DNA from: a bacterium
GTDB taxonomy: Bacteria; Patescibacteriota; Minisyncoccia; Phycocordibacterales; GWA1-40-21
DNA length: 64,000 nt
Reading direction: 5' to 3'
Assembly (NCBI GenBank): GCA_037131755.1
Contig: JBAXQJ010000004.1
Location: 1,094 to 65,093, forward strand
The translations under genes and the position numbers were made by a program. Shown here piece after piece: positions 525 through 45,053 of the stretch (the first letter of the stretch is position 1; every line of letters starts with the position of its first letter). The notes below the pieces were generated by a model. That model was not told the DNA's origin. It did no database searches and saw only the letters and a list, made by a program, of their open reading frames with translations.

Positions 525-3440
525 CTAGAATTTCTTAATGACAATATCAATTAAACGATTAAGATACTTATTAAAATCTGAAACCTTTATTTGATCTTTA
601 TAATCCTTGAGAATTAGTTCTTGAAGTGTCCGCTTGGCTTCCTTTAAAAACTCTTCACGTTTCGATGAATCCTGCCAGCCGTCATCTAAGATGTCGGCTA
701 ATCGTGCCGCCATTTCTTTAATAAATTCTTTAACAATAGTTTCATCGGAGTCGCTAATAAATTCTTCGGACACGACAAATAACCCATACTCACCGAGCGA
801 ATAACCAAGTCCCTTGGCTTCTTCTGCCTTAGTCTTGATATCATTCATTAATTCATAGTAGCGCTTGATTCGTTCTGCTAAATCTATTTGATGTTTTTCA
901 AATTCTTGTCGAATGGCACTTAGTCTTTCACTGAACTTCTTAAAGGCTGGATGTGTATCGATATTAATCGATATCTCTCGCTTAAGCATCTTCTCAAGAT
1001 TAAGTGCCTTTTCGTCTTCGTTCATCTTGTCCAAGCGTTCAAGTGTATATAAATCATTAACCTTTAATTCTCTAAAATTTTTGGTTATGCCTTCATAGTC
1101 AATTTTTTCCTGAATAAGACTTTTAATTTTGCCGCCATATTCTGCCAAAGAAAAAGCATCGACACCGTCATCATCTTGGAACTCTTTTACAAAGGCTAAA
1201 TAAAAACTAGTAACCCACTCAAAAGTACGAATATACTCCATTAAGAATGGATCAGGCGATAGGATTTCGAATAGCATCTTAAGACGTGCGTATTTGTCCT
1301 TAAAAAATTGCTGCTTATTTTGATTATCAATAAAAATCTTGAGACAACGACGCAAATTATCAATTGATGGGTCTTCAATATTTACACCTGTAAATAATTC
1401 CATCACCTCTTCAATTACTTTAACAAATTCCTTTTTAAGACGTTCAATATCGATCATTGCGCTATCAACCACGCTCTCGTCAAAGTTGAGCGCATCATAA
1501 AGATTTTTGGTAACACCATAATAATCGATAATCTTGCCACACCCTTTATTTGGATAAACTCTATTTGTGCGAGCGATTGCCTGCAGTAGATTATGGTCTC
1601 TTAATGGTTTGTCCAAATACATAACCTGCTCAACTGGAGCATCAAATCCAGTCAATAGCATGTCACAAACTAATAAAAATTTAAGTGGGTGGCTTGCATC
1701 TTTAAACTGCTCTATAACCTTCTCTCGTTTTTGCTTATTAGTATTATATTTTTTTAGATCGTCGCTATCGCTATTAGGATCGCCGGGCGAGTAAACAACT
1801 TCTGACCATTCTGCTGGCACTAACTTATCAAGCATCTCCTTGTATTTTGCAGTTGCTTCACGATCGTAACATACAATCTGTGCTTTAAAACCATTCGGCA
1901 AAACATATAACTTGTAATGCTCAACGATATCCTGAATTACCGCTTCCATGCGTTTTTCAAGTTTAACTAAAGCTTCTTTTTTGCCATATTTTTTCATTAG
2001 CAACTCCCTCTGGCTATCATTGAGATCTGCGGTCATTTCCGCAAACTGCTTATCAAGCTTTTCTTCATCAACAAAAAACTTTGACAGCCTTGCTTCGTAG
2101 GTAACTGGTAATGTTGCGCCATCATCAATAGCTTGTTGAATTGAGTAGTAATCTAAATAACGCTCACCCTCTTCACCAAAGTTGCGGTGGGTATTTAATG
2201 TAAGTTTATCAATAGGGGTACCAGTAAAGCCAAAGAAAAAAGCGTTCTTAAACGCATTGCGCATCTTTATCGCAGAAATACCTTCATTATCACGATGAGC
2301 CTCGTCTGAAAGCACAATCACATTGCCTTCGATAGCTTCTACGTCCTGCAATTCATTAAACTTTTGAATAGTGGAAATAAATATACCCCTGTCAGCTCCC
2401 TTAATCTTTTTCTCTAAATCCTTTCGAGATTCAACTCGAATTAAGTTTTGTCCACCCCATGCTTCAAACTCATCAAAAACTTGTTGGTCTAGATCAATGC
2501 GATCAATTAATATAAATACCTTAGGATTTTTTAGCTGTTCATCAAATCGTAATTTCCAAGCAGCAAAAAACATAGTCAGGGTTTTTCCTGATCCTTGCGT
2601 ATGCCAAATTAAACCCTTCATTAATTCGCCATCCTTAACACGGCTAACAATCTTATTGGTAGCATAAAGTTGCTGATATCGAGCAATCTTCTTTGTATAA
2701 CTATCTTTCTTCTTCTCAAATACAATAAAGTTTTTAATAATATCTAAGACCTGAGTTTTGTCTAACAAATAATGTAGAGTTAAATCTAATTCTTCGTCAT
2801 ACTTCTTATTGCCACCGTGCAAATCTTCACGCCAAGTTAAAAAATATTGTTTTGGAGAATATGTTGCACCATAAACAGTTTTCAGTCCGTCCGTAGAGAT
2901 GTTAAAGCAATTAGGTAAAAATAATTTTGGCGCAACCTTTTCATACCGCTTAATCTGATCAATAGCATTTTCAAAATTAACGCTACTTGAGGCGGTGGGG
3001 CTTTTTGCTTCAATATCGCAAATCGGCAAACCATTGATAAAAATCATTACATCTGGTCGAATGTTTTCTGTCACACCCTCAAAGTAAAACTGATTGGTCA
3101 CAATAAATTGATTATTATCAATATTATCAAAATCAATAATCTTATAATCCTTAAACTGTCCAGAAGCAGGGTCTTTTATGTTTATGCCGTTTCTTAAGAC
3201 GAATAAAAATGACTCATTGGTGTCCAATTTCTTTACTTCACGAACTACGCTTTGAGCGATATCGTCGGTCGAATTATTAATTCTCTTAACTGCCTCTAAA
3301 AGATGTGGTGAAATAATATATTCATTTTCAAATATTCTCAGTTTAGAAAATTCATCAGCGCGAATATATTTATAACCGAGATTATCGGCAATAAATTTAA
3401 TTACATGGTTTTCGATCGTATGTTGTTCGTTAAATTTCAT
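525..3440 (-). CDS. hsdR: Type I restriction enzyme R subunit (HsdR)
   Basis: 971 aa; SF2 helicase motifs (HTQGSGKTLTMF Walker A, VLSDEAHRDNEG DEAH box); N-terminal nuclease-like region; adjacent to HsdM/S gene. Confidence 0.85.
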   Translation of the reverse strand: MKFNEQHTIENHVIKFIADNLGYKYIRADEFSKLRIFENEYIISPHLLEAVKRINNSTDDIAQSVVREVKKLDTNESFLFVLRNGINIKDPASGQFKDYKIIDFDNIDNNQFIVTNQFYFEGVTENIRPDVMIFINGLPICDIEAKSPTASSSVNFENAIDQIKRYEKVAPKLFLPNCFNISTDGLKTVYGATYSPKQYFLTWREDLHGGNKKYDEELDLTLHYLLDKTQVLDIIKNFIVFEKKKDSYTKKIARYQQLYATNKIVSRVKDGELMKGLIWHTQGSGKTLTMFFAAWKLRFDEQLKNPKVFILIDRIDLDQQVFDEFEAWGGQNLIRVESRKDLEKKIKGADRGIFISTIQKFNELQDVEAIEGNVIVLSDEAHRDNEGISAIKMRNAFKNAFFFGFTGTPIDKLTLNTHRNFGEEGERYLDYYSIQQAIDDGATLPVTYEARLSKFFVDEEKLDKQFAEMTADLNDSQRELLMKKYGKKEALVKLEKRMEAVIQDIVEHYKLYVLPNGFKAQIVCYDREATAKYKEMLDKLVPAEWSEVVYSPGDPNSDSDDLKKYNTNKQKREKVIEQFKDASHPLKFLLVCDMLLTGFDAPVEQVMYLDKPLRDHNLLQAIARTNRVYPNKGCGKIIDYYGVTKNLYDALNFDESVVDSAMIDIERLKKEFVKVIEEVMELFTGVNIEDPSIDNLRRCLKIFIDNQNKQQFFKDKYARLKMLFEILSPDPFLMEYIRTFEWVTSFYLAFVKEFQDDDGVDAFSLAEYGGKIKSLIQEKIDYEGITKNFRELKVNDLYTLERLDKMNEDEKALNLEKMLKREISINIDTHPAFKKFSERLSAIRQEFEKHQIDLAERIKRYYELMNDIKTKAEEAKGLGYSLGEYGLFVVSEEFISDSDETIVKEFIKEMAARLADILDDGWQDSSKREEFLKEAKRTLQELILKDYKDQIKVSDFNKYLNRLIDIVIKKF

Positions 3441-8655: not shown

Positions 8656-8747
8656 TGGCGGAGACGGCGAGATTCGAACTCGCGGAGCCCTATAAGAGGC
8701 TCACCTCTTTAGCAAAGAGGCACATTAGACCACTCTGACACGTCTCC
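8656..8747 (-). tRNA. tRNA-Ser (anticodon GCU), CCA encoded
   Basis: Manual fold of GGAGACGTGTCAGAGTGGTCTAATGTGCCTCTTTGCTAAAGAGGTGAGCCTCTTATAGGGCTCCGCGAGTTCGAATCTCGCCGTCTCCGCCA: 7-bp acceptor, anticodon loop TTGCTAA, long variable arm, TTCGAAT T-loop. Confidence 0.8.
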
Positions 8748-14288: not shown

Positions 14289-14361
14289 GCGCGTGTAGCT
14301 CAGTTGGTAGAGCGGTCGTCTTATACACGACTGGTCCCAGGTTCGAATCCTGGCACGCGCA
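14289..14361 (+). tRNA. tRNA-Ile (anticodon UAU)
   Basis: Manual cloverleaf of GCGCGTGTAGCTCAGTTGGTAGAGCGGTCGTCTTATACACGACTGGTCCCAGGTTCGAATCCTGGCACGCGCA: perfect 7-bp acceptor, 5-bp anticodon stem GTCGT/ACGAC, loop CTTATAC (U33, anticodon TAT, A37), discriminator A, no encoded CCA. Confidence 0.75.
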
Positions 14362-17055: not shown

Positions 17056-17473
17056 GGGGATGCATGTTTTGACAAAAAACCAAACCCTTTCGTGCAAAGC
17101 AGAGCTCCAACAACTCTTTAAAAGGTTGGAAATTGTAATTGCAAACACATTAGTTGCAAAGGCAAAGTCTCTTGTTTCTCCATATTTTGGAGTACAGGAT
17201 CTTGCTTTCGCCTACGTTGCTTAATCTTTTTAGATTAGCCTAGGCGGCGTCTCTCTCGCCTATTTCGCGGAGACGGGACGAGGCGTAATATACGCGAATA
17301 TATTTTGCAGTAGTCTCGACTGCAAACCGAGAACAAGAGAATCGGCTTATGATCATTTTTCTGATTTTGAAATCATAAGCTAAAATCCGTCACAAGACGG
17401 GACTAAATCAGATACGCTTTGTAGACTCGTCTGTGTTAATTTTTTGGACGCGGTTTCAATACCGCCATCTCCA
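17056..17473 (+). ncRNA. ssrA: putative tmRNA (SsrA)
   Basis: Begins GGGGATGCATGTTTTGAC (tmRNA-like 5' end) downstream of smpB. The 3' end CATCTCC-A can pair with 5' GGGGATG (one G-U) to form a tRNA-like acceptor, preceded by a T-arm-like GCGGTTTCAATACCGC. An internal ORF ends ...DLAFAYVA-TAA at 17222-17224. Not covariance-model verified. Confidence 0.5.
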
Positions 17474-17712
17474 CACTTTCAAAAATCCGCTCATTCTGAT
17501 GGGCGATTTTTGTTGTGTGGATATGAGCAAGCAAACTGCTTTGCTTGCGGGCGGTATTGAAAAGATTGGCGCTGTTTTGTCGGCAAAACCGCCAATCACG
17601 CGCCGTGGGCGGCAATTACCGCCATGTTTCTCAAACCCATTGACGAAACAACTGGAATGTGATAATTTTTTGACTGGAGTTTAAACCAAAAAAGTTAGAG
17701 AGGAATTGATAA

Positions 17713-25761: not shown

Positions 25762-28596
25762 CTAAATCTTAAACGGCGACACGGCCGGAGCTGGCGGGGG
25801 CGGAACGTCTTTTTTTTCATATTTTTTCACAATCTCTTTTTCTACCTCTTCCCGCTCCCGGCCAAACTTGAGATAGGACAATTCTTTGAGTTTGGAAATG
25901 ATAGTTGGATCACCTTTTGGCGGCAGCATATTTTGGATATTGAACGGCTTGACCGGCACTCCTTTGGCCAGCATTTTTAGATAACAGTTGAAATTATCGA
26001 TATTCATAATGTCTCGGGCCGTAAAGACCGGCGCAAATTGTTTTTCCAAAAATTCGGCATCTTCGGAACCGACCCGGAAAGCCGCGATGGAACCAACGTT
26101 GCCAAAGACGGAGTCTTTGATCTTTTCATCGAGTTGTTTGATATATTGATGAGCGATATTGAGTGACAGTTTGTATTTTCGCGCTTCGGACAAAATTGTT
26201 GAGATCGAATCAGTGGTAATGTTTTGGAATTCATCGATGTACAAATAAAACGGCGGGGTATCGGTGCCCAGAGAATCGACTCGCGACAGGGCCGCCATCA
26301 AAATCTTGCCGACGACGATCAAACCGATCAGGTTGGCATTGATATCTCCCAGACGGCCTTTGGACAAATTGACCAGCAGGATTTTCTTGTTATCCATGAT
26401 TTCGCGAAAATTGAAAGATGATTTTTCCTGGGCTACCACCGGTCGCATAATCTCGTTTGCCAAGAAAACATCAAACTTGCTGGTGATATACGGCACGATA
26501 TTGGCGAGCGACGCTTCGCCGCCAGCCTTTTCCGCCACCTCCCGCCAGAACTGAACCACAACTGGGTTTTTACAATGAGACAGTTTTAGCTCGCGAAACT
26601 GCTTATTGGCCAGAACCCGCGAAACATCCAAAAGAGTGTTGCCGGTTTCTGGATCTTCCAAGACCAGCATTGTCGCGTTGCGGAAATACTGCTCGAACAT
26701 CGGTCCACCCGCCACTTTCATATCAAACAATTTATTAAAAATCGACAGCATTTCGTTTACCACAAAAGTCTTTTGTTCCGGGAAACGAACATCGTACTCG
26801 AGCATATTGAGGGCCATCGGTCGTGGCGTATAGGCCGGATCGAAATAAATCACATCTTCGTAACGCTCCTTGGGAATGATCGATAAGATATCCTGAATAT
26901 CCGAACCGTGCGGATCGATCATACAGACACCGTCACCGTTTTTAATATCCTGGGCGATCATATTCTTGAGCAGAGTCGTCTTACCAGTACCAGTCTGACC
27001 GATGGCATAGAAATGTCGGAGGCGATCCTCTTTGGCCATATAGATTTTGGTCTCAACGTTTCGGTTTGTGTTTGTTCCCAAGAGAATTCCCTCCGTTGGT
27101 AGGCCAAGCGGCGCCGGTGCCGTCCCGCTCTTGGAGATTTTCACGCCCGGTGAAGCACGCATCTCGCCCGATGGTAAATGCAACATCGTTGTGATTTCCC
27201 GGATATTCAAAGGCATTTTCTGACTATTTTCGAACACTCGAAAGGAAAACTCCCGGAGGACTTTTTTGAGCTCCCGGCCTTTCATTCGGGCAAAGGATAC
27301 TCGATTACTGCCGGTATTTTCAAACTGATTAAAAGCTGATTCAAGGTCAATCAGGATTCTTTCGGCTTCGGACTCGGTTGGGGCGGAAGCAACTAATCGG
27401 ATATTGGTTTCGACGGTTGGTGACTGGATCTTGGCATTCAAATTTTCCAAGATCGCCTTGTCCGGCAAATTCCTTGGGTCTTCGCCTTTTTTGTCTTTTT
27501 CCTTATCCTTGTCTTTCTTGTTTTTTTCCGCTGACTTAAAAAGGGCTTTGCCGAAATCCTTCACTACCGACTTGAGCATGCCGGCAAAAGTCAGACGGTC
27601 CATCTTGATCGCGTCCTTCAGTTTCATCCCCTTATCAATATCTTGCAAAGCTCGCTTGTAGAAACGGGTGTAATGCTCCCCGACCGGCTTGAACACCAGC
27701 TGAATGGCGGCACCGGCGCCGTCTTTGCTGATTTTTGAGAAAGCGTTCAAGATTATATTTAGCGGATCATAATCAAAATGCTCATAATATTTGATCGGAT
27801 AAAAATGATTGGCGAGCTGTTTACCACAAGATACGACCGACTTACCGGTTTCATTAAAAATATTATAATCGTCTTTCTTCTCGAAAATCTTGGCGTTGGG
27901 GAAAATGGCCAGGATCTGTTTTTCAAACAAACCGACCTTGCTGTTAGGTACGGCGACATAGAAAACCGTTTCCTCACTGCCATTACTGTTAGCCAGTTCC
28001 ACCGTAAAATACTGCGGACCGTCCGTCTCATCAGAAACAGCAATCATGCCGGCATAAAACTGCTCCATTTTGGAAATTAATTCTTTCAAGTTACGCTGCT
28101 TGTCTTTTTCTTCTGTCGGTTCCGGCAAAGAAACTTCAAACAAGGTCATCTTGAGCGACCTGAAGAAAGGCGATTTTTCCAATCGGCCGGCAATCGGCAA
28201 GCCCGCCTTGATATATTGAACCAAGAAGCGGTGGAAATCGTCATCCAAATGCGAATCGTTCATTTTTTCCACGATGGACAAGGCATTCATCAGGCCTTTG
28301 GATTGCAAAACGGTCACCAGCTCTTCCATTTTGGTATCATGCTCTTCCGGCATTAAATCCAGGACGATTGCGTCAATTTCTTTTGGTTGCAACTGATACT
28401 CCGGTTCCAAGACTTTCTCTGGTTTTTCGGCTTTGTAGTCGATGATCTTTTCGGTAATCACCGCTTCACGAACCGGCTCTAGACCTTTTTCCGCAATCGT
28501 CTTTTCGTGCTTGGCCACCTGGGCGCGCAAAAAATTCAATTCCTCCTGGGGAGAACTGAATTTCTGTTCCATTTTTTCAAAACTACCTTCGGTCAT
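25762..28596 (-). CDS. VirB4/TraC/VirD4-superfamily P-loop ATPase (FtsK/HerA-like) with large N-terminal domain of unknown function
   Basis: 944 aa; Walker A AIGQTGTGKTTL; Walker B LYIDEF; downstream R-finger/HQ...QL region; no N-terminal TM helices. Confidence 0.6.
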   Translation of the reverse strand: MTEGSFEKMEQKFSSPQEELNFLRAQVAKHEKTIAEKGLEPVREAVITEKIIDYKAEKPEKVLEPEYQLQPKEIDAIVLDLMPEEHDTKMEELVTVLQSKGLMNALSIVEKMNDSHLDDDFHRFLVQYIKAGLPIAGRLEKSPFFRSLKMTLFEVSLPEPTEEKDKQRNLKELISKMEQFYAGMIAVSDETDGPQYFTVELANSNGSEETVFYVAVPNSKVGLFEKQILAIFPNAKIFEKKDDYNIFNETGKSVVSCGKQLANHFYPIKYYEHFDYDPLNIILNAFSKISKDGAGAAIQLVFKPVGEHYTRFYKRALQDIDKGMKLKDAIKMDRLTFAGMLKSVVKDFGKALFKSAEKNKKDKDKEKDKKGEDPRNLPDKAILENLNAKIQSPTVETNIRLVASAPTESEAERILIDLESAFNQFENTGSNRVSFARMKGRELKKVLREFSFRVFENSQKMPLNIREITTMLHLPSGEMRASPGVKISKSGTAPAPLGLPTEGILLGTNTNRNVETKIYMAKEDRLRHFYAIGQTGTGKTTLLKNMIAQDIKNGDGVCMIDPHGSDIQDILSIIPKERYEDVIYFDPAYTPRPMALNMLEYDVRFPEQKTFVVNEMLSIFNKLFDMKVAGGPMFEQYFRNATMLVLEDPETGNTLLDVSRVLANKQFRELKLSHCKNPVVVQFWREVAEKAGGEASLANIVPYITSKFDVFLANEIMRPVVAQEKSSFNFREIMDNKKILLVNLSKGRLGDINANLIGLIVVGKILMAALSRVDSLGTDTPPFYLYIDEFQNITTDSISTILSEARKYKLSLNIAHQYIKQLDEKIKDSVFGNVGSIAAFRVGSEDAEFLEKQFAPVFTARDIMNIDNFNCYLKMLAKGVPVKPFNIQNMLPPKGDPTIISKLKELSYLKFGREREEVEKEIVKKYEKKDVPPPPAPAVSPFKI

Positions 28597-28639: not shown

Positions 28640-29611
28640 TCATCTGTTTATTATTTTACCCATAAGCTTATATCCATTTCCATGACTTAACATCCCTAAA
28701 TATGATGCCGCTGTTTCTTTTTTCTGACTTTCCTCTAATCTCTTAAACATTTTGTTTTTAGTACTTGTCCTTAATACCCTATGATTCGGAAAATGCACCC
28801 AGCCCAAAAAATCCATACCAGATGCCAGGGTTTTTATAAAAATCTTTTGGGGATGCATACGCAATTTTAATTTTTGCTCCAGAAATTTGCTGATTATAGG
28901 CACCAGTTTTTCCAATTCACTTTTATCCTGCGAGAAAAAAACAAAATCATCGGCATACCTTATGTAATATCCTGCTTTCAACTTATGCTTTACAAATTGG
29001 TCAAATTCGTTCAGATACACATTCACCAAGAGCTGAGAGGTTAAATTACCGAGCGGCAAGCCCTTATAAATCATACCGCTATGGAAACTTTTAATGATAG
29101 TTCGCAATAAAACAAGAACATTCCGGTCTTTTATATTTTTCTTCAGAATTTCAAACAGTATTTTCTGATCAATGGACGCAAAACACTTCCTGATATCCCC
29201 TTTCAAAATCCAAACGGTTTTAGTGTGATTAAAAGACGCCCTTTTGCCAAAATTCCTGAACCTATCTAGGGCTTTGTGTGTTCCTTTTCCTAACCGGCAA
29301 GAATACGAATCAAAAATAAATTTTCGGTCAAAAAACGGATACAAAATCCGGTAAACCGCCCGGTGCAACACCCTGTCCCGCACGCTTGCCTTGTGTATGT
29401 CTCTCGGCTTCGGATCATTTACCTTGAAATTCTCGTAATTGTCATGAACATAAGTTTTGTTTTTCAAATCATCATGCAGGTCAATCAGATTGTCCATCAA
29501 TCTCAGTTTGAATTCCGGCACATCTTTCTTATCCTTTTTACCCCTTGAAAATTCCTGCCAGGCAAGGAGTAAGTTTTCCAAAGATATGATATGGTCATAG
29601 GCATGAGTCAA
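28640..29611 (-). CDS. diversity-generating retroelement reverse transcriptase
   Basis: 323 aa, RT domains only; YADD box (YIRYADDFVFF); DGR-type motif 4 LPLGNLTSQ ([I/L]GxxxSQ) in place of the group II QGxxxSP; TTG start at 29611. Confidence 0.8.
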   Translation of the reverse strand: MTHAYDHIISLENLLLAWQEFSRGKKDKKDVPEFKLRLMDNLIDLHDDLKNKTYVHDNYENFKVNDPKPRDIHKASVRDRVLHRAVYRILYPFFDRKFIFDSYSCRLGKGTHKALDRFRNFGKRASFNHTKTVWILKGDIRKCFASIDQKILFEILKKNIKDRNVLVLLRTIIKSFHSGMIYKGLPLGNLTSQLLVNVYLNEFDQFVKHKLKAGYYIRYADDFVFFSQDKSELEKLVPIISKFLEQKLKLRMHPQKIFIKTLASGMDFLGWVHFPNHRVLRTSTKNKMFKRLEESQKKETAASYLGMLSHGNGYKLMGKIINR

Positions 29612-29633
29612 AAATTTTCTAACAATAATGTCA

Positions 29634-29647
29634 CCCCCCCCCCCCCC
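29634..29647. repeat. homopolymeric C14 (G14 on minus strand) tract
   Basis: 14 consecutive C, 22 nt upstream of the RT start codon and between an ATG (29628) and the Avd-like reading frame. Confidence 0.9.
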
Positions 29648-29781
29648 GCAACACCCTGCCCGTCATTAACAGCCTGAAAGACGCTTATTTTCTCTGGATT
29701 TCCTATTTTGTCCATCTGCCTAATATACACAAATATTCGCTTGGTGAAAATGTTAGCAAATTATTTATTGAGACTATTGAA

Positions 29782-30006
29782 ATGACGGCTTATGCCGAGT
29801 TTTTGACCAGAACGGAAAAATTACCTTATATAAAAGTAGCAGTACGAAAATTAGATACACTAAAAGTTATGATTCAAATAGTCTGGGAAATAAAGGCTTT
29901 GGACGAGAAAAAATATATTGCTTTGTCAGAAAAACTGAACGAGACCGGCAAGATGCTTGGTGGCTGGCATAATAAATTAGCCAAAGAAAACTCCCCGACT
30001 AAATAA
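29782..30006 (+). CDS. avd: Avd-like accessory protein (four-helix-bundle family), N-terminally truncated in this frame; frame extends upstream to 29629 without a start codon
   Basis: C-terminus EKKYIALSEKLNETGKMLGGW resembles the Avd/TIGR02436 family. In-frame upstream segment ENAYFLWISYFVHLPNIHKYSLGENVSKLFIETIE also resembles the family N-terminus but lacks an ATG. The ATG at 29628 is in the -1 frame, across the C14 tract. Confidence 0.5.
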   Translation: MTAYAEFLTRTEKLPYIKVAVRKLDTLKVMIQIVWEIKALDEKKYIALSEKLNETGKMLGGWHNKLAKENSPTK

Positions 30007-30028
30007 TCGGGGAGAAATAAAGAGAGTA

Positions 30029-30150
30029 GCGGGACCGAGAAGGCAAACCCATTGTCACTGTTCCACCTGTTGTCAGGGTTACCGTTGTAGGCATTGAGCC
30101 TGTAGTCGTTGTACCGGTTCGTACCGAGCACGTTCGGGTTGCCGTCAGAA
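30029..30150 (-). repeat. DGR template repeat (TR)
   Basis: 122 bp, 109/122 identical to 30648-30769; all 13 mismatches are A (minus strand) in this copy. Confidence 0.85.
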
Positions 30151-30631: not shown

Positions 30632-31300
30632 CTAGGCCTGAGCACCAACTTGCGGGACCGAGAAGGCAAACCCACCGCCACCGCTCCACCTGCGGTCAGG
30701 GTTACCGTGGCAGGCAAAGAGCCTGTAGTCGTTGTACCGGTTCGTACCGAGCACGACCGGGTTGCCGTCAGAATCAGGAATAGGTTCGTGCATGGTGATA
30801 ATCCAGTCCAAACCCATTTCCTTGATTTCCTCATCCGAGAACATGTCCCGGATCAAGCAGGCTACTTCGGCATGCGGATCAGTCATCTTCCGTTTCTTGG
30901 CGTTACCACGAATATTCTTCGTGATTCGGTCATTGTCGGAGAACAACTTTCCAGGGATAACACCAATCTGGTGAACCGTCCCTGCCTTGGTCGGCTTAAA
31001 GTTCTTGTGTCGGAGCACGCTTTGGGCGTAACTGCCAACAGGTAAACCTTTGCCATTCAAGTGAACGATCCACTCTTCGCCGGTTTTCCCGTTCGAGACG
31101 ACCGTGAAATAAATCACGCCGTCCGCGTCTCGGGTCCACTTCATACCATCATTGAACCGCCCCTCGATTGCCCGCTGGAGAAAAGCATCAAGTTTTTCCG
31201 GATCAAATCCGTATTCCTTCTGAAGGAAAACCTGACGACCGATTTCCGCCAACTTACCGCCCAGTCTCGCCTGCAGATCGCCATTAAGTTTTGTACTCAT
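30632..31300 (-). CDS. DGR target (variable) protein, probable C-type-lectin-like fold with C-terminal VR
   Basis: 222 aa; the VR encodes the C-terminal NPD.R...GFAFSV segment, which resembles CLec-type VRs; no signal peptide. Confidence 0.7.
   Translation of the reverse strand: MSTKLNGDLQARLGGKLAEIGRQVFLQKEYGFDPEKLDAFLQRAIEGRFNDGMKWTRDADGVIYFTVVSNGKTGEEWIVHLNGKGLPVGSYAQSVLRHKNFKPTKAGTVHQIGVIPGKLFSDNDRITKNIRGNAKKRKMTDPHAEVACLIRDMFSDEEIKEMGLDWIITMHEPIPDSDGNPVVLGTNRYNDYRLFACHGNPDRRWSGGGGFAFSVPQVGAQA
30648..30769 (-). repeat. DGR variable repeat (VR) at 3' end of target gene
   Basis: Counterpart of the TR. The 13 differences all fall at TR adenines, mostly within AAC codons: TR peptide LGTNRYNDYRLNAYNGNPDNRWNSDNGFAFSVP versus VR LGTNRYNDYRLFACHGNPDRRWSGGGGFAFSVP. 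Confidence 0.85.
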
Positions 31301-31586: not shown

Positions 31587-32360
31587 TTATAACATAGTCA
31601 ATATTTCCGCTCCGTCTTTGGTTATCACAATCGTATGCTCAAAATGAGCGCTTCTCTTGCCATCGGCGGTCCGATAGGTGTAGTCGTCATCATCTTGGAT
31701 AATATGCTTACTCCCCTCGTTTAACATCGGTTCAATGGCCAGCACCATGCCGACTTTCAATTTCTCCCCTTTTTCTTCCAGGCAATAGTTTGGCACATAA
31801 GGATCTTCGTGGGGCTTGTAGCCGACACCGTGGCCGCACAATTCCTCCACAATCCCATAGCGGAGCGGTCGGACATATTTTTCAATCGCATAGCTGATAT
31901 CGCGGACATGGTTACCCGCGAGAGCAGCAGCGATTCCCTCGTCCAAAGCGCTTTTTGTGACACTGATTAATTTTTGTGCCGCCTCATCGATTTTTCCCAC
32001 TGGTACAGTAACAGCATGATCAGTAAAAAGGCCTTTGTGATTTAACCCCATGTCGAGTGACACAATATCACCCTCTTTCAAGATAATCGGCTTTTCGTTG
32101 GGAATACCGTGAACAATCACATCGTTGACCGACACGCAAATAGCGGCTGGGTAAGCACGCTTGACCCCCGGCGGTCGATAATTCAGAAAGGCTGCTTTAT
32201 CACCATTTTCTTCGGCTAGTTTGATGGCCAGATCGTTTAAATCATTAGTGGATACTCCGGGTTTTACCGCTTTGGCCACTTGGCTCACGATAAAAGCTAG
32301 GCGTTTCCCGCCCTCGCGCAGTATCTCTATTTCTTCTGGTGTTTTAATCGTAACCGCCAT
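31587..32360 (-). CDS. map: methionine aminopeptidase type I
   Basis: 257 aa; the metal-ligand pattern (D, D, H, E, E) typical of MAP is conserved. Confidence 0.9.
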   Translation of the reverse strand: MAVTIKTPEEIEILREGGKRLAFIVSQVAKAVKPGVSTNDLNDLAIKLAEENGDKAAFLNYRPPGVKRAYPAAICVSVNDVIVHGIPNEKPIILKEGDIVSLDMGLNHKGLFTDHAVTVPVGKIDEAAQKLISVTKSALDEGIAAALAGNHVRDISYAIEKYVRPLRYGIVEELCGHGVGYKPHEDPYVPNYCLEEKGEKLKVGMVLAIEPMLNEGSKHIIQDDDDYTYRTADGKRSAHFEHTIVITKDGAEILTML

Positions 32361-32410
32361 AATAATGCTAATTATTACAGCCGATAGCTAAAATAGCAAG
32401 TCTGGATAGC

Positions 32411-32603
32411 AAGAGCGAGCCTTTGCCGCTTGGAAAATTCTCTAAGGCAAAGCGAGTTATTGCTTTTTGCGGGTTAGCGGAGCCAGCTTAGAAAATTAAA
32501 GAATTTTTTAGAAAAATCAAACTGTTTGAGGAATATTCTGATATGACGAGTTTTTGATTTTTCGTTAAGAAAAATGACTTAATTTTCAAGCTGGCGCAGC
32601 GCT
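32411..32603. repeat. MITE/ERIC-like intergenic repeat, copy 1
   Basis: About 135-bp core (gcgggttagcggagccagcttagaaaattaaag ... gatatgacgagtttttgatttttcg ... ttaattttcaagctggcgcagcgc) is more than 85% identical to 44892-45025; internal terminal inverted repeats ccagcttagaaaattaa / ttaattttcaagctgg. Confidence 0.7.
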
Positions 32604-32604
32604 A

Positions 32605-32633
32605 GGCCCGCCCAAATCAGATTTGGGCGGGCC
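32605..32633. other. GC-rich 13-bp perfect stem-loop downstream of adk
   Basis: ggcccgcccaaat-cag-atttgggcgggcc; no adjacent U-run. Confidence 0.4.
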
Positions 32634-32661
32634 GTAAGCAAAAGGTAATGACGAGCGATCC

Positions 32662-33294
32662 TTATAGTCCCAATTTATTTATTATCTCCTGATGGACTTC
32701 TTCAATGGTTTTTTCACCATTGATATCCAAGAAAATATAATTGGTATTGTCTTTGTAATAATTGATCGTTGGCATCACTTCGGCATCAAACCATTTCAGC
32801 CTTTTTTCAATCGCCTCCTGTTTGTCATCCTTGCGGGCCCGGCCTTCCAATCTCTTTTTTGCCCACTCCCGGCTAACATTCATATAAATGACTACCGGTA
32901 AAGACACCTTGTAGAAAGTCAAAGCCGAATCAAGCAATTGCGCTTCGTGCAATTTTCGAGGACAGCCATCAAAAAGAAGATTCTCTTTGCCGGTATAATG
33001 GGTGAACAAATAATTTTCCCATAATGCGACCATCACTGCCTCCGGCATCAAACCGCCAGCTTCCATAATCTCTTTCGATAATTTCTGGGTGTAGGTCTTA
33101 CCCTTCACAAATTCGCGAAGGAAAGCGCCGGTTTCGATATGCAGGGTCTGGCAAGATTTATCTTTTTCACACAGGAATTTTGATAGTAAATCCGCCTGAG
33201 TCCCCTTGCCGCAACCAGATCGGCCAATAAAAATATAAGCGCGTGGAATAGACCACATCGGTTCCTTCTTTTCTCGTTTAAAAAAATTTAACAT
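32662..33294 (-). CDS. adk: adenylate kinase
   Basis: 210 aa; P-loop GRSGCGKGTQ; lid/NMP-binding regions. Confidence 0.85.
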   Translation of the reverse strand: MLNFFKREKKEPMWSIPRAYIFIGRSGCGKGTQADLLSKFLCEKDKSCQTLHIETGAFLREFVKGKTYTQKLSKEIMEAGGLMPEAVMVALWENYLFTHYTGKENLLFDGCPRKLHEAQLLDSALTFYKVSLPVVIYMNVSREWAKKRLEGRARKDDKQEAIEKRLKWFDAEVMPTINYYKDNTNYIFLDINGEKTIEEVHQEIINKLGL

Positions 33295-33402
33295 GGGAAA
33301 ATTATAACATATTTTAAAAAGTTAGTGTTATTGAAAGTAGTGAGATATTGCTTTTTAAAAGCATTACGGAGTGAAATTTATAGCAATAAATTTCATGAGT
33401 AT

Positions 33403-33432
33403 AGAAAAAGTGCCGCGTCGGCGGCACTTTTA
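33403..33432 (-). terminator. rho-independent terminator after rplE (operon ends here)
   Basis: gtgccgc-gtcg-gcggcac with flanking A5/T4 runs, about 30 nt downstream of the rplE stop. Confidence 0.55.
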
Positions 33433-33464
33433 TCGTGGTTTTAAAAAGTAATATCGAACGGTTT

Positions 33465-34022
33465 TTATTTCTTAGCATCGTCAGCTTTGAATGGGAAGCC
33501 GAGATATTCCAGGAAGGCAGCTGCTTCAGCCTTATTCTTTGCTGTTGTATTTACCGTAATAGTCATCCCGAAAACATCTTTCAGTTCTTCATCGGCTGTT
33601 TCTGGGAAAATAGTGTTTTCTTTGATACCAATGGAATAGTTACCCATTTCATCAATACCTTTTCTTAGGATACCACGAAAGTCTTTAGTTCGAGGGAAAG
33701 CCACCAAAACCATTTTATCGACAAAAGCCATCATTCTGTCGCCACGCAAAGTGACAACCAAGCCAACCGGGTCACCTTGTCGAACTTTGAACGAAGCGAT
33801 CGACTTCTTGGCCCCGCGAAGCGCCGGCTTCTGGCCGGTAATTTTGACCACTCGATCAGTAATAGTTTCGATTTTCTTCTTATCCTTGAGGGAACCGATA
33901 CCAACATTCACCACCACCTTCTGGAGCTTTGGCACCTGCATGATATTTTTGTAACCCATCTTACCCTTTAGGGCTTCAAAGGTTTTCTCCTGCTTTTCTT
34001 TGGTTGTAATAATTTTTGACAT
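33465..34022 (-). CDS. rplE: 50S ribosomal protein L5
   Basis: 185 aa; matches the L5 family. Confidence 0.9.
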   Translation of the reverse strand: MSKIITTKEKQEKTFEALKGKMGYKNIMQVPKLQKVVVNVGIGSLKDKKKIETITDRVVKITGQKPALRGAKKSIASFKVRQGDPVGLVVTLRGDRMMAFVDKMVLVAFPRTKDFRGILRKGIDEMGNYSIGIKENTIFPETADEELKDVFGMTITVNTTAKNKAEAAAFLEYLGFPFKADDAKK

Positions 34023-44870: not shown

Positions 44871-45053
44871 GAGAGCGAGGTTTCTTGTTTTACGTGTTAG
44901 CGGAGCTGGTTTAGGAAATCAACGAGCTTTTTAGAAAAATCAAACTGTTTGAGGAATATTCTGATATGACGAGTTTTTGATTTTTCGTGAAGAAAAGCGA
45001 CTTGATTTTCAAACTGGCGCAGCGCGGAAAGCAAAACAAGAAACCGAGCGTCC
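44871..45053. repeat. MITE/ERIC-like intergenic repeat, copy 2 (flanked by 13-bp inverted repeats ggtttcttgtttt / aaaacaagaaacc)
   Basis: Core 44892-45025 aligns base-for-base with 32469-32602, including gatatgacgagtttttgatttttcg and ctggcgcagcgc. Confidence 0.7.

Follow-up and report, generated by a model that had tools for sequence, protein, structure and literature searches.

We analysed a 64,000-nt stretch (hereafter the window) of contig JBAXQJ010000004.1, from the Patescibacteriota assembly GCA_037131755.1, focusing on the diversity-generating retroelement (DGR) that it contains and on the state of the DGR accessory gene avd. The locus is a real DGR (Table 1). Its reverse transcriptase (RT) matches Pfam RVT_1 with E = 1.3e-24 and keeps the [I/L]GxxxSQ and YxDD motifs intact, as LGNLTSQ (residue 187) and YADD (residue 219). 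The template repeat (TR) and the variable repeat (VR) are 89% identical, and the mismatches between them fall at TR adenines in 13 of 13 cases. The product of the target gene has no Pfam or NCBIfam match, and Rfam has no match at the DGR locus. Exact look-up of the RT counted from TTG-29611 returned no record, and a 313-aa (amino acid) RT call was found in one NCBI contig only. The order TR-(avd)-RT corresponds to architecture B3, which comprises 90% of the DGRs of the candidate phyla radiation (CPR) surveyed by Wu et al. (2018, PMC5758913), a survey in which the average isoelectric point (pI) of Avd is 9.5. An earlier analysis of these letters alone (the sequence-only reading) had called it unusual for avd to lie opposite to RT and TR; this is in fact the standard CPR B3 arrangement (PMC5758913).

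The avd gene of the window is broken as assembled. Its frame, which from 29629 reads CHPPPPRNTLPVINSLKDAYFLW... (CHPPPPRNTLPVINSLKDAYFLWISYFVHLPNIHKYSLGE...), is free of stop codons up to 30003, continues to the stop at 30004-30006 and carries no other lesions, but it has no ATG, GTG or TTG ahead of Met-29782. Close to the start of this frame lies a run of 14 C at 29634-29647 (C14; G14 on the RT strand), the sole C or G run of more than six within the 64 kb; the chance expectation for such runs is about 1e-4 per 64 kb. The identification of the broken open reading frame (ORF) as Avd is supported by profile comparison and by predicted fold. A protein repaired to C13 aligns with NCBIfam DivGenRetAVD (NF033474) over profile positions 3-103, corresponding to residues 12-114 (E = 4e-15), with a score of 55.9 bits that is under the 80-bit equivalog cut-off, and it scores 40.9 bits against Pfam bAvd (PF22296), barely over the 40-bit cut-off. 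The AlphaFold2 model of the frame (predicted local distance difference test 89, predicted template modelling score 0.81) contains helices at residues 9-25, 30-55, 59-85 and 91-118, the first of which starts immediately after an LPV motif. Searched with Foldseek, the model finds its best solved matches in the 23S-IVP protein 2gsc and the Bordetella phage Avd 4dwl, followed by the DGR ribonucleoprotein 8ub7; against 4dwl_C the template modelling scores are 0.82/0.91 and the root-mean-square deviation is 1.5. The product would be small and basic (pI 9.4), and its gene is located between TR and RT. The Avd of BPP-1 forms a pentamer, binds RT and is needed for cDNA synthesis, and we assume the same of the window's Avd. 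What gene callers report at the locus is a 74-aa ORF; because its Met-29782 corresponds to residue 50 in the model, within helix 2, this product is unlikely to be a functional Avd.

Two upstream ATGs could supply the missing start, and explicit modelling of tract alleles assigns them to different length classes. The first, ATG-29628, lies one base out of register and yields an intact Avd of 124-126 aa at C10, C13 or C16 (125-126 aa at n = 13 or 16); relatives P0001, P0002 and P0013 have the N-terminus MSPPP(P). The second, ATG-29603, is antisense to a His codon of the RT N-terminus and is joined at n = 12 or 15 to a product of 133-134 aa that begins MSQKFSNNNVT-PPPP.... The Avd start of relatives is an ATG that precedes the tract by about 31-37 nt and is likewise antisense to the RT N-terminal His codon, and ATGs homologous to 29603 are present in related loci L005, L009, L011, L012 and L109-L121. 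At n = 11, 14 or 17 no upstream ATG is joined to Avd. Since the two ATGs sit in two frames, C14 falls in the single length class in which both are OFF. Much of the sequence-only reading was reproduced here: its tract coordinates and frame arithmetic, the resemblance to Avd of the segment upstream of Met-29782 (now spanned by a profile match over residues 12-114), the fusion of ATG-29628 to an Avd of about 125 aa by C13 or two added C, and the distance of 22 nt from tract to RT start, which holds between the tract end and TTG-29611. Its frame picture was right in placing ATG-29628 off by one but missed the second ATG at 29603, and with it the all-OFF nature of C14.

The repeat is a property of the family. 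A protein-guided scan of metagenome contigs yielded 23 related loci, and a scan of GTDB species representatives yielded at least 514, essentially all in Patescibacteria-type metagenome-assembled genomes, of which 80 were fetched; the set used for comparison (n = 97) joins these 80 to 17 metagenome loci that span the site. A repeat of at least 6 units occupies the homologous site in 93 of the 97 loci. All 17 site-spanning metagenome relatives have a pure run of C7-C11, with Avd identity descending from 87% to 41%, and one further metagenome contig opens within a C run of 12 or more; among the GTDB loci, 68 of 80 have C7-C13, with the mode at C9-C10. Across 491 kb of these loci, 77 of 78 G/C runs of 8 or more are found at the avd site. 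Elsewhere in avd only about one third of Pro codons are CCC, and selection at the protein level for PPP therefore does not explain the pure C runs.

Twelve GTDB loci are without poly-C, and eight of these carry another simple repeat at the homologous position (Table 1). The unit lengths found at the avd site are 1, 2, 4, 4, 4 and 7, and never a multiple of 3. The loci free of a repeat (fewer than 6 units; L033, L038, L065 and L079), by comparison, are in frame from the family ATG in four of four cases, with no intervening stop, and L033 retains only an (AACC)2 remnant. The convergence of different frameshifting repeats on one site is a classic contingency-locus signature, and the presence of repeats other than poly-C speaks against any function tied to poly-G RNA or to poly-Pro protein. 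These other repeats fall in one subclade of relatives, where repeat type seems to have been turned over repeatedly. We also observed that L015 (436-735) and L016 (757-1056), two DGRs of one groundwater sample that are 87% identical overall, are almost identical over about 300 nt within avd, starting at the tract, which suggests recent recombination between elements; at that overall identity, they were dismissed as a same-strain pair.

Tract length varies between otherwise identical genomes. Exact look-ups of the 74-aa or 69-aa products gave sets of near-identical contigs from different samples. Three contigs (L114, L115 and L116) from three sibling JGI samples (Ga0373118, Ga0373119 and Ga0373120), with 0 mismatches over 2.3-3.1 kb, have tracts of C12, C14 and C16, and only C16 is in frame. 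Three more, which come from three different projects and have 0 mismatches over 2.5 kb outside the tract, divide into C9, in frame, in L119 (JGI) and L120 (Logan), and C10, out of frame, in L121 (another JGI project). At identities of 97.4-99.5%, L111-L113 have C13, in frame, and L109 and L110 have C14, out of frame; L117 has C16 and L118 C15. The TR is identical in all five contigs of the group L109-L113, and their VRs vary at 22 columns, all of them TR adenines; with an invariant TR and VR differences at TR adenines only, these tract-bearing DGRs thus appear to be active in nature. The repeat also coincides with assembly breaks, with contigs ending at or near it in L001, L003, L004, L013, L020, L023 and L118 and an N-gap beside it in L077. 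In L114-L116 the RT predicted by gene callers runs through the tract to differing starts (295, 348 or 369 aa), and because gene callers extend RT in this way, avd is called as 74 aa even in in-frame alleles.

We consider it reasonably probable that a conserved, hypermutable contingency repeat phase-varies Avd, and hence DGR activity, and that the window holds an OFF allele, with RT possibly affected. The C14 run would in that case be a simple-sequence tract that alters its length through slipped-strand mispairing in replication, placed both in a short N-terminal extension of avd before helix 1 and, on the opposite strand, in either the leader or the N-terminal part of the RT gene, which diverges head to head from avd. 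With neither upstream ATG joined, the C14 allele would represent the OFF state. In the Bordetella phage system neither cDNA synthesis nor retrohoming proceeds without Avd; with the tract OFF, the target gene should therefore cease to be diversified, and one C gained or lost in a descendant cell would re-arm the DGR. The recurrence of this design throughout the CPR TR-(avd)-RT family implies selection for the switch itself. We infer that switching occurs within populations of the window's strain, that loss of full-length Avd would, by analogy, halt homing in these elements, and that RT expression would be affected too. The slipped-strand switch of Avd put forward by the sequence-only reading has gained support from the conservation of a repeat at this site, from units that are not multiples of 3 and from ON and OFF alleles of sister strains that differ in the tract only.

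Decay of avd into a frameshifted pseudogene, leaving a dead DGR, would account for a frame broken as assembled and for a VR-encoded target protein that is unchanged in three other assemblies of the window's strain. We regard it as extremely unlikely, given that the frame has no further lesions and still scores as Avd, that RT is intact with its catalytic motifs, that TR/VR differences are confined to adenines, and that the break falls exactly in a tract that is both conserved and variable across the family.

Several observations, from the strain itself and from the family, weigh against a frame switch in avd. In the window's strain, C14 is the only length seen in tract-spanning contigs, namely the window and L002, which are 100% identical over 4,984 nt, and L002 may share reads with the window contig; none of eight modelled ON-allele Avd proteins of the strain (C9-C19) was found in a collection of 15 billion proteins. 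Long homopolymers are moreover error-prone in sequencing and PCR, and some of the ±1 differences between assemblies could be technical. These points bear on the possibility that C14 is itself a sequencing or assembly error, the true tract being C13 or C15 and avd intact. In its favour, a homopolymer of 14 is difficult to sequence, three more contigs from the strain stop at the tract or no more than about 19 nt away, and the only other spanning contig may derive from the same reads. The sequence-only reading held such an error to be equally likely; the family-wide repeat and the C12/C14/C16 differences now make it less so, and we judge it quite unlikely. Out-of-frame loci are the majority (53 of 85), drawn from many projects and assemblers and including reliably assembled C8-C10 runs and tetranucleotides; the 2- and 4-base gaps that separate identical contigs exceed typical consensus error; and the family-wide repeat would need explaining even if C14 were off by one.

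In the family, the assembled phase of the repeat is random. Of 85 loci that have both a repeat and an upstream ATG, 32 are in frame, 23 would be restored by +1 and 25 by -1, and 5 are ambiguous; random expectation for the in-frame class is 34.7, and there is no enrichment of ON alleles. We read the random phase as fast, weakly selected switching, but taken alone it fits a repeat in an untranslated leader equally well. TTG stands at the Leu of the LPV motif in 46% of loci against a background of 17%, and an internal TTG start could serve some of them; TTA (30%) and CTN (24%) make up the other loci, and the window has CTG, for which reason an Avd start at this Leu was dismissed as a general rule. 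Nor is a downstream start the general rule, because 33 of the 93 repeat-bearing loci, the window included, have no ATG, GTG or TTG within 8 codons past the repeat; an ATG is found there in only 3.

Random phase would also be tolerable if every frame were rescued by recoding, through RNA-polymerase slippage or +1/-1 ribosomal frameshifting on CCC-C or poly-Pro, which would provide low, constitutive Avd from any allele. RNA polymerase can slip on long homopolymers, and +1 shifts are known to occur readily at CCC-C. Uniform +1 frameshifting at the tract was suggested by the first out-of-frame loci, which had one extra C, and was dismissed on the wider set: since out-of-frame loci split between those that need -1 (25) and those that need +1 (23), with no consistent direction, a uniform programmed frameshift is ruled out. 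Recoding in general appears very unlikely, given that the tetra-, hepta- and dinucleotide repeats at the site are not slippery in this manner and that differences in DNA length between identical strains are directly observed.

A further alternative places the switch in the promoter or leader only: the repeat would tune transcription of RT, of avd or of both, and with Avd starting downstream its register would be irrelevant. Support for this proposal comes from the RT side of the tract. Most family members show, in RT sense, a -35-like nTGGyA, 6-9 nt, the G run, TAnnnT, 7 nt and the RT ATG; within TAnnnT the T, A and T are conserved at 78%, 58% and 74%, often as TAGAAT (e.g. L066, L052, L059, L090 and L098). 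Where both motifs are present (34 loci), the distance between the -35-like and -10-like elements is most often 17 (10 loci), 18 (8) or 19 (9), as in a leaderless RT promoter. The tract may serve as the spacer of such a putative promoter and may tune RT transcription. The wobble bases preferred in the LPV codons (TTG, CCA) are consistent with a -35-like element read from the opposite strand, and the in-frame fraction equals random expectation. Tracts acting as promoter spacers have precedents in Bordetella fim and in Neisseria porA and opc.

We hold a switch confined to the promoter or leader to be unlikely. The window has no TAnnnT after the tract, the spacing there would be 23, and RT has no ATG at +14; its subclade shares the lack of TAnnnT, and the consensus promoters on the window's minus strand lie upstream of the tract. 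In the tetra- and heptanucleotide loci, repeats of 24-70 nt would set the two motifs 35-81 nt apart. Repeat units that are never a multiple of 3, and repeat-free loci that are in frame in four of four cases, would go unexplained; together with the 33 of 93 loci, window included, without a canonical start downstream of the repeat, and with a helix 1 that begins right after LPV, they disfavour an untranslated leader. A promoter or leader effect and frame switching of Avd could nevertheless coexist. Two related ideas were set aside: compensation between tract and flanks that would keep promoter spacing constant is weak (Spearman -0.24, p = 0.056), and poly-G as the Shine-Dalgarno sequence of RT is not general, the other repeat types at the site not being G-rich.

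The proposed Avd switch may extend to RT. Where the family has its RT ATG, members of the window's subclade have ATT (window 29626-29624), ATA or AAA. The peptide VxRK(I/F), IVRKF in the window, is conserved upstream of TTG-29611, and the true RT start may for this reason be the ATT at 29626-29624 or lie upstream of the tract. In L012 and L114 there is no canonical RT start past the tract. In 13 of 13 lineages of the subclade, against 30 of 77 elsewhere, a codon-aligned antisense frame stays open between the tract and an antisense ATG; as the lineages are related to each other, the contrast is only suggestive. Two minus-strand ATGs of the window are predicted to enter the RT frame (Table 1), and an equivalent of the one at 29664-29666 is present, in frame as assembled, in L005 and L008. 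Co-switching of RT is possible because RT would meet these upstream ATGs at the same lengths that turn Avd on: C12/C15 would give the long Avd with an extended, poly-Gly RT, C13/C16 the short Avd with a second extended RT, and C14 neither. Two overlapping, divergent genes would in that case share the tract as a run of poly-Pro/poly-Gly codons. That one repeat gates Avd and RT together, switching the whole retroelement, is a tentative and rather doubtful extension suggested by reading-frame geometry.

Table 1. Features of the DGR locus in the window, and repeats other than poly-C at the avd site of related loci.
Feature	Sequence	Position	Strand	Remarks
DGR reverse transcriptase ORF	window	28640..29611	-	counted from first canonical start, TTG-29611
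Family-typical avd start ATG	window	29603..29605	+	in frame only at C12/C15; MSQKFSNNNVTPPPP-RNTLPV..., 133-134 aa
Second possible avd start ATG	window	29628..29630	+	in frame only at C10/C13/C16; MSPPPP-RNTLPV..., 125 aa
Avd reading frame	window	29629..30006	+	open, no in-frame start upstream of Met-29782; predicted four-helix bundle
C14 homopolymer	window	29634..29647	+	proposed hypermutable switch; encodes poly-Pro of the Avd N-terminal extension
Minus-strand ATG	window	29664..29666	-	predicted in RT frame at G13/G16, the class joining ATG-29628 to Avd
Minus-strand ATG	window	29713..29715	-	predicted in RT frame at G12/G15, the class joining ATG-29603 to Avd
Residual ORF from Met-29782, 74 aa	window	29782..30006	+	without helix 1 and most of helix 2
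Hairpin CTCCCCGA-loop-TCGGGGAG, then T-run	window	29991..30014	-	just 3′ of TR; overlaps avd stop and conserved C-terminal ENSPTK codons
Template repeat (TR)	window	30029..30150	-	
DGR target gene, 222 aa	window	30632..31300	-	
Variable repeat (VR)	window	30652..30773	-	3′ end of target gene
(AACC)7	L039	about 2920-3020 in locus		avd site
(CGAA)9	L064	about 2920-3020 in locus		avd site
(CAGC)6 to at least (CAGC)14	L071, L077, L084, L096	about 2920-3020 in each locus		avd site
(AGCAATC)10	L107	about 2920-3020 in locus		avd site
(GA)6	L037	about 2920-3020 in locus		avd site

The hairpin listed in Table 1 has equivalents after avd in relatives L027 and L015/L016. It is likely a terminator or a structured 3′ end of the TR transcript; alternatively, it may be a structural element of the DGR RNA. 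Its terminator-like form and its position after TR point to separate transcripts for TR and RT. Immediately downstream of RT, a minus-strand gene (25762-28596) encodes a 944-aa protein with weak matches to TraG/TrwB/VirD4-like and HerA/DUF87 ATPases, and in relatives L109 and L114 the DGR adjoins genes of type II/IV secretion type (T2SSF, T2SSE). On the other side, the target gene adjoins a map-adk-ribosomal protein L5 cluster (31587-34022); Wu et al. (2018, PMC5758913) likewise noted ribosomal protein genes within or next to some CPR DGRs. A pair of 138-nt intergenic segments (32465-32602 and 44888-45025), one between adk and map and the other upstream of a 713-aa ORF, is 89% identical, with 15 mismatches that are not adenine-specific, and is unrelated to TR; it has no Rfam match at the gathering threshold. 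Elsewhere in the window, Rfam identifies one tmRNA gene (17056-17476) and two tRNA genes (14289-14361 and 8659-8747).

DGRs are especially common in the tiny, host-dependent CPR/Patescibacteria. To our knowledge, no other natural system is known that rewrites a chosen stretch of protein-coding sequence at very high rates. If the proposed switch of Avd is real, each population would consist of a few diversifying cells and many stable ones, a form of bet-hedging placed atop a diversity generator, and the retention of a useful VR variant once found would be explained. Likewise, avd genes annotated as truncated or missing in CPR genomes would in many cases represent switch states or side effects of gene calling, and contig breaks caused by the repeat in CPR assemblies could be flagged. 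Should co-switching with RT also hold, a stochastic switch would sit atop targeted hypermutation and be conserved across a large part of Patescibacteria. We found no relevant literature that links DGRs or Avd with homopolymers, simple sequence repeats (SSRs), phase variation or contingency loci, in a search that did not cover the main CPR DGR survey (Paul et al. 2017); the survey of Wu et al. (2018, PMC5758913) and other searchable DGR papers make no mention of a homopolymer or repeat in avd or of a frame-broken avd. Both the target of the switch, a DGR accessory protein and perhaps RT, and its conservation deep into the radiation appear to be new.

Compared with known systems, the locus agrees with the CPR B3 DGRs (PMC5758913) in its order of VR-bearing target, TR, reverse-strand avd and RT, in its basic Avd and in its adenine-specific TR/VR differences. 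It resembles the BPP-1 DGR, in which bAvd acts with bRT, in having a predicted four-helix-bundle Avd (4dwl, 8ub7) and an RT with [I/L]GxxxSQ and YxDD; it differs in that avd and RT stand head to head, their 5′ ends overlapping and the zone of overlap containing a repeat. The avd of BPP-1 is on the same strand, upstream of TR, and is without a repeat. With promoter-spacer switches (Bordetella fim poly-C, Neisseria porA/opc poly-G/C and H. influenzae hifA/hifB TA) the family shares a tract between divergent genes and, in most members, -35-like and -10-like motifs spaced by 17-19, which are consensus matches only; here, however, the motifs are absent from the window's subclade and from the tetra- and heptanucleotide loci, and the tract also lies inside an ORF. 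The closest parallel is with SSR contingency loci such as the poly-G/C tracts of C. jejuni and N. meningitidis and the tetranucleotides of H. influenzae. In common with these, the family has a tract close to the 5′ end of an ORF that is either a homopolymer of at least 7 or a repeat with a unit of 2, 4 or 7 nt; the unit length is not divisible by 3, the tract varies in length in otherwise identical genomes, and ON and OFF alleles occur naturally. Whereas those loci control surface structures or restriction-modification, the gene that would be gated here is an accessory factor of targeted hypermutation, in an uncultured Patescibacteria lineage; and whereas classical contingency repeats are usually conserved within a species or genus, this one has been kept down to 41% Avd identity.

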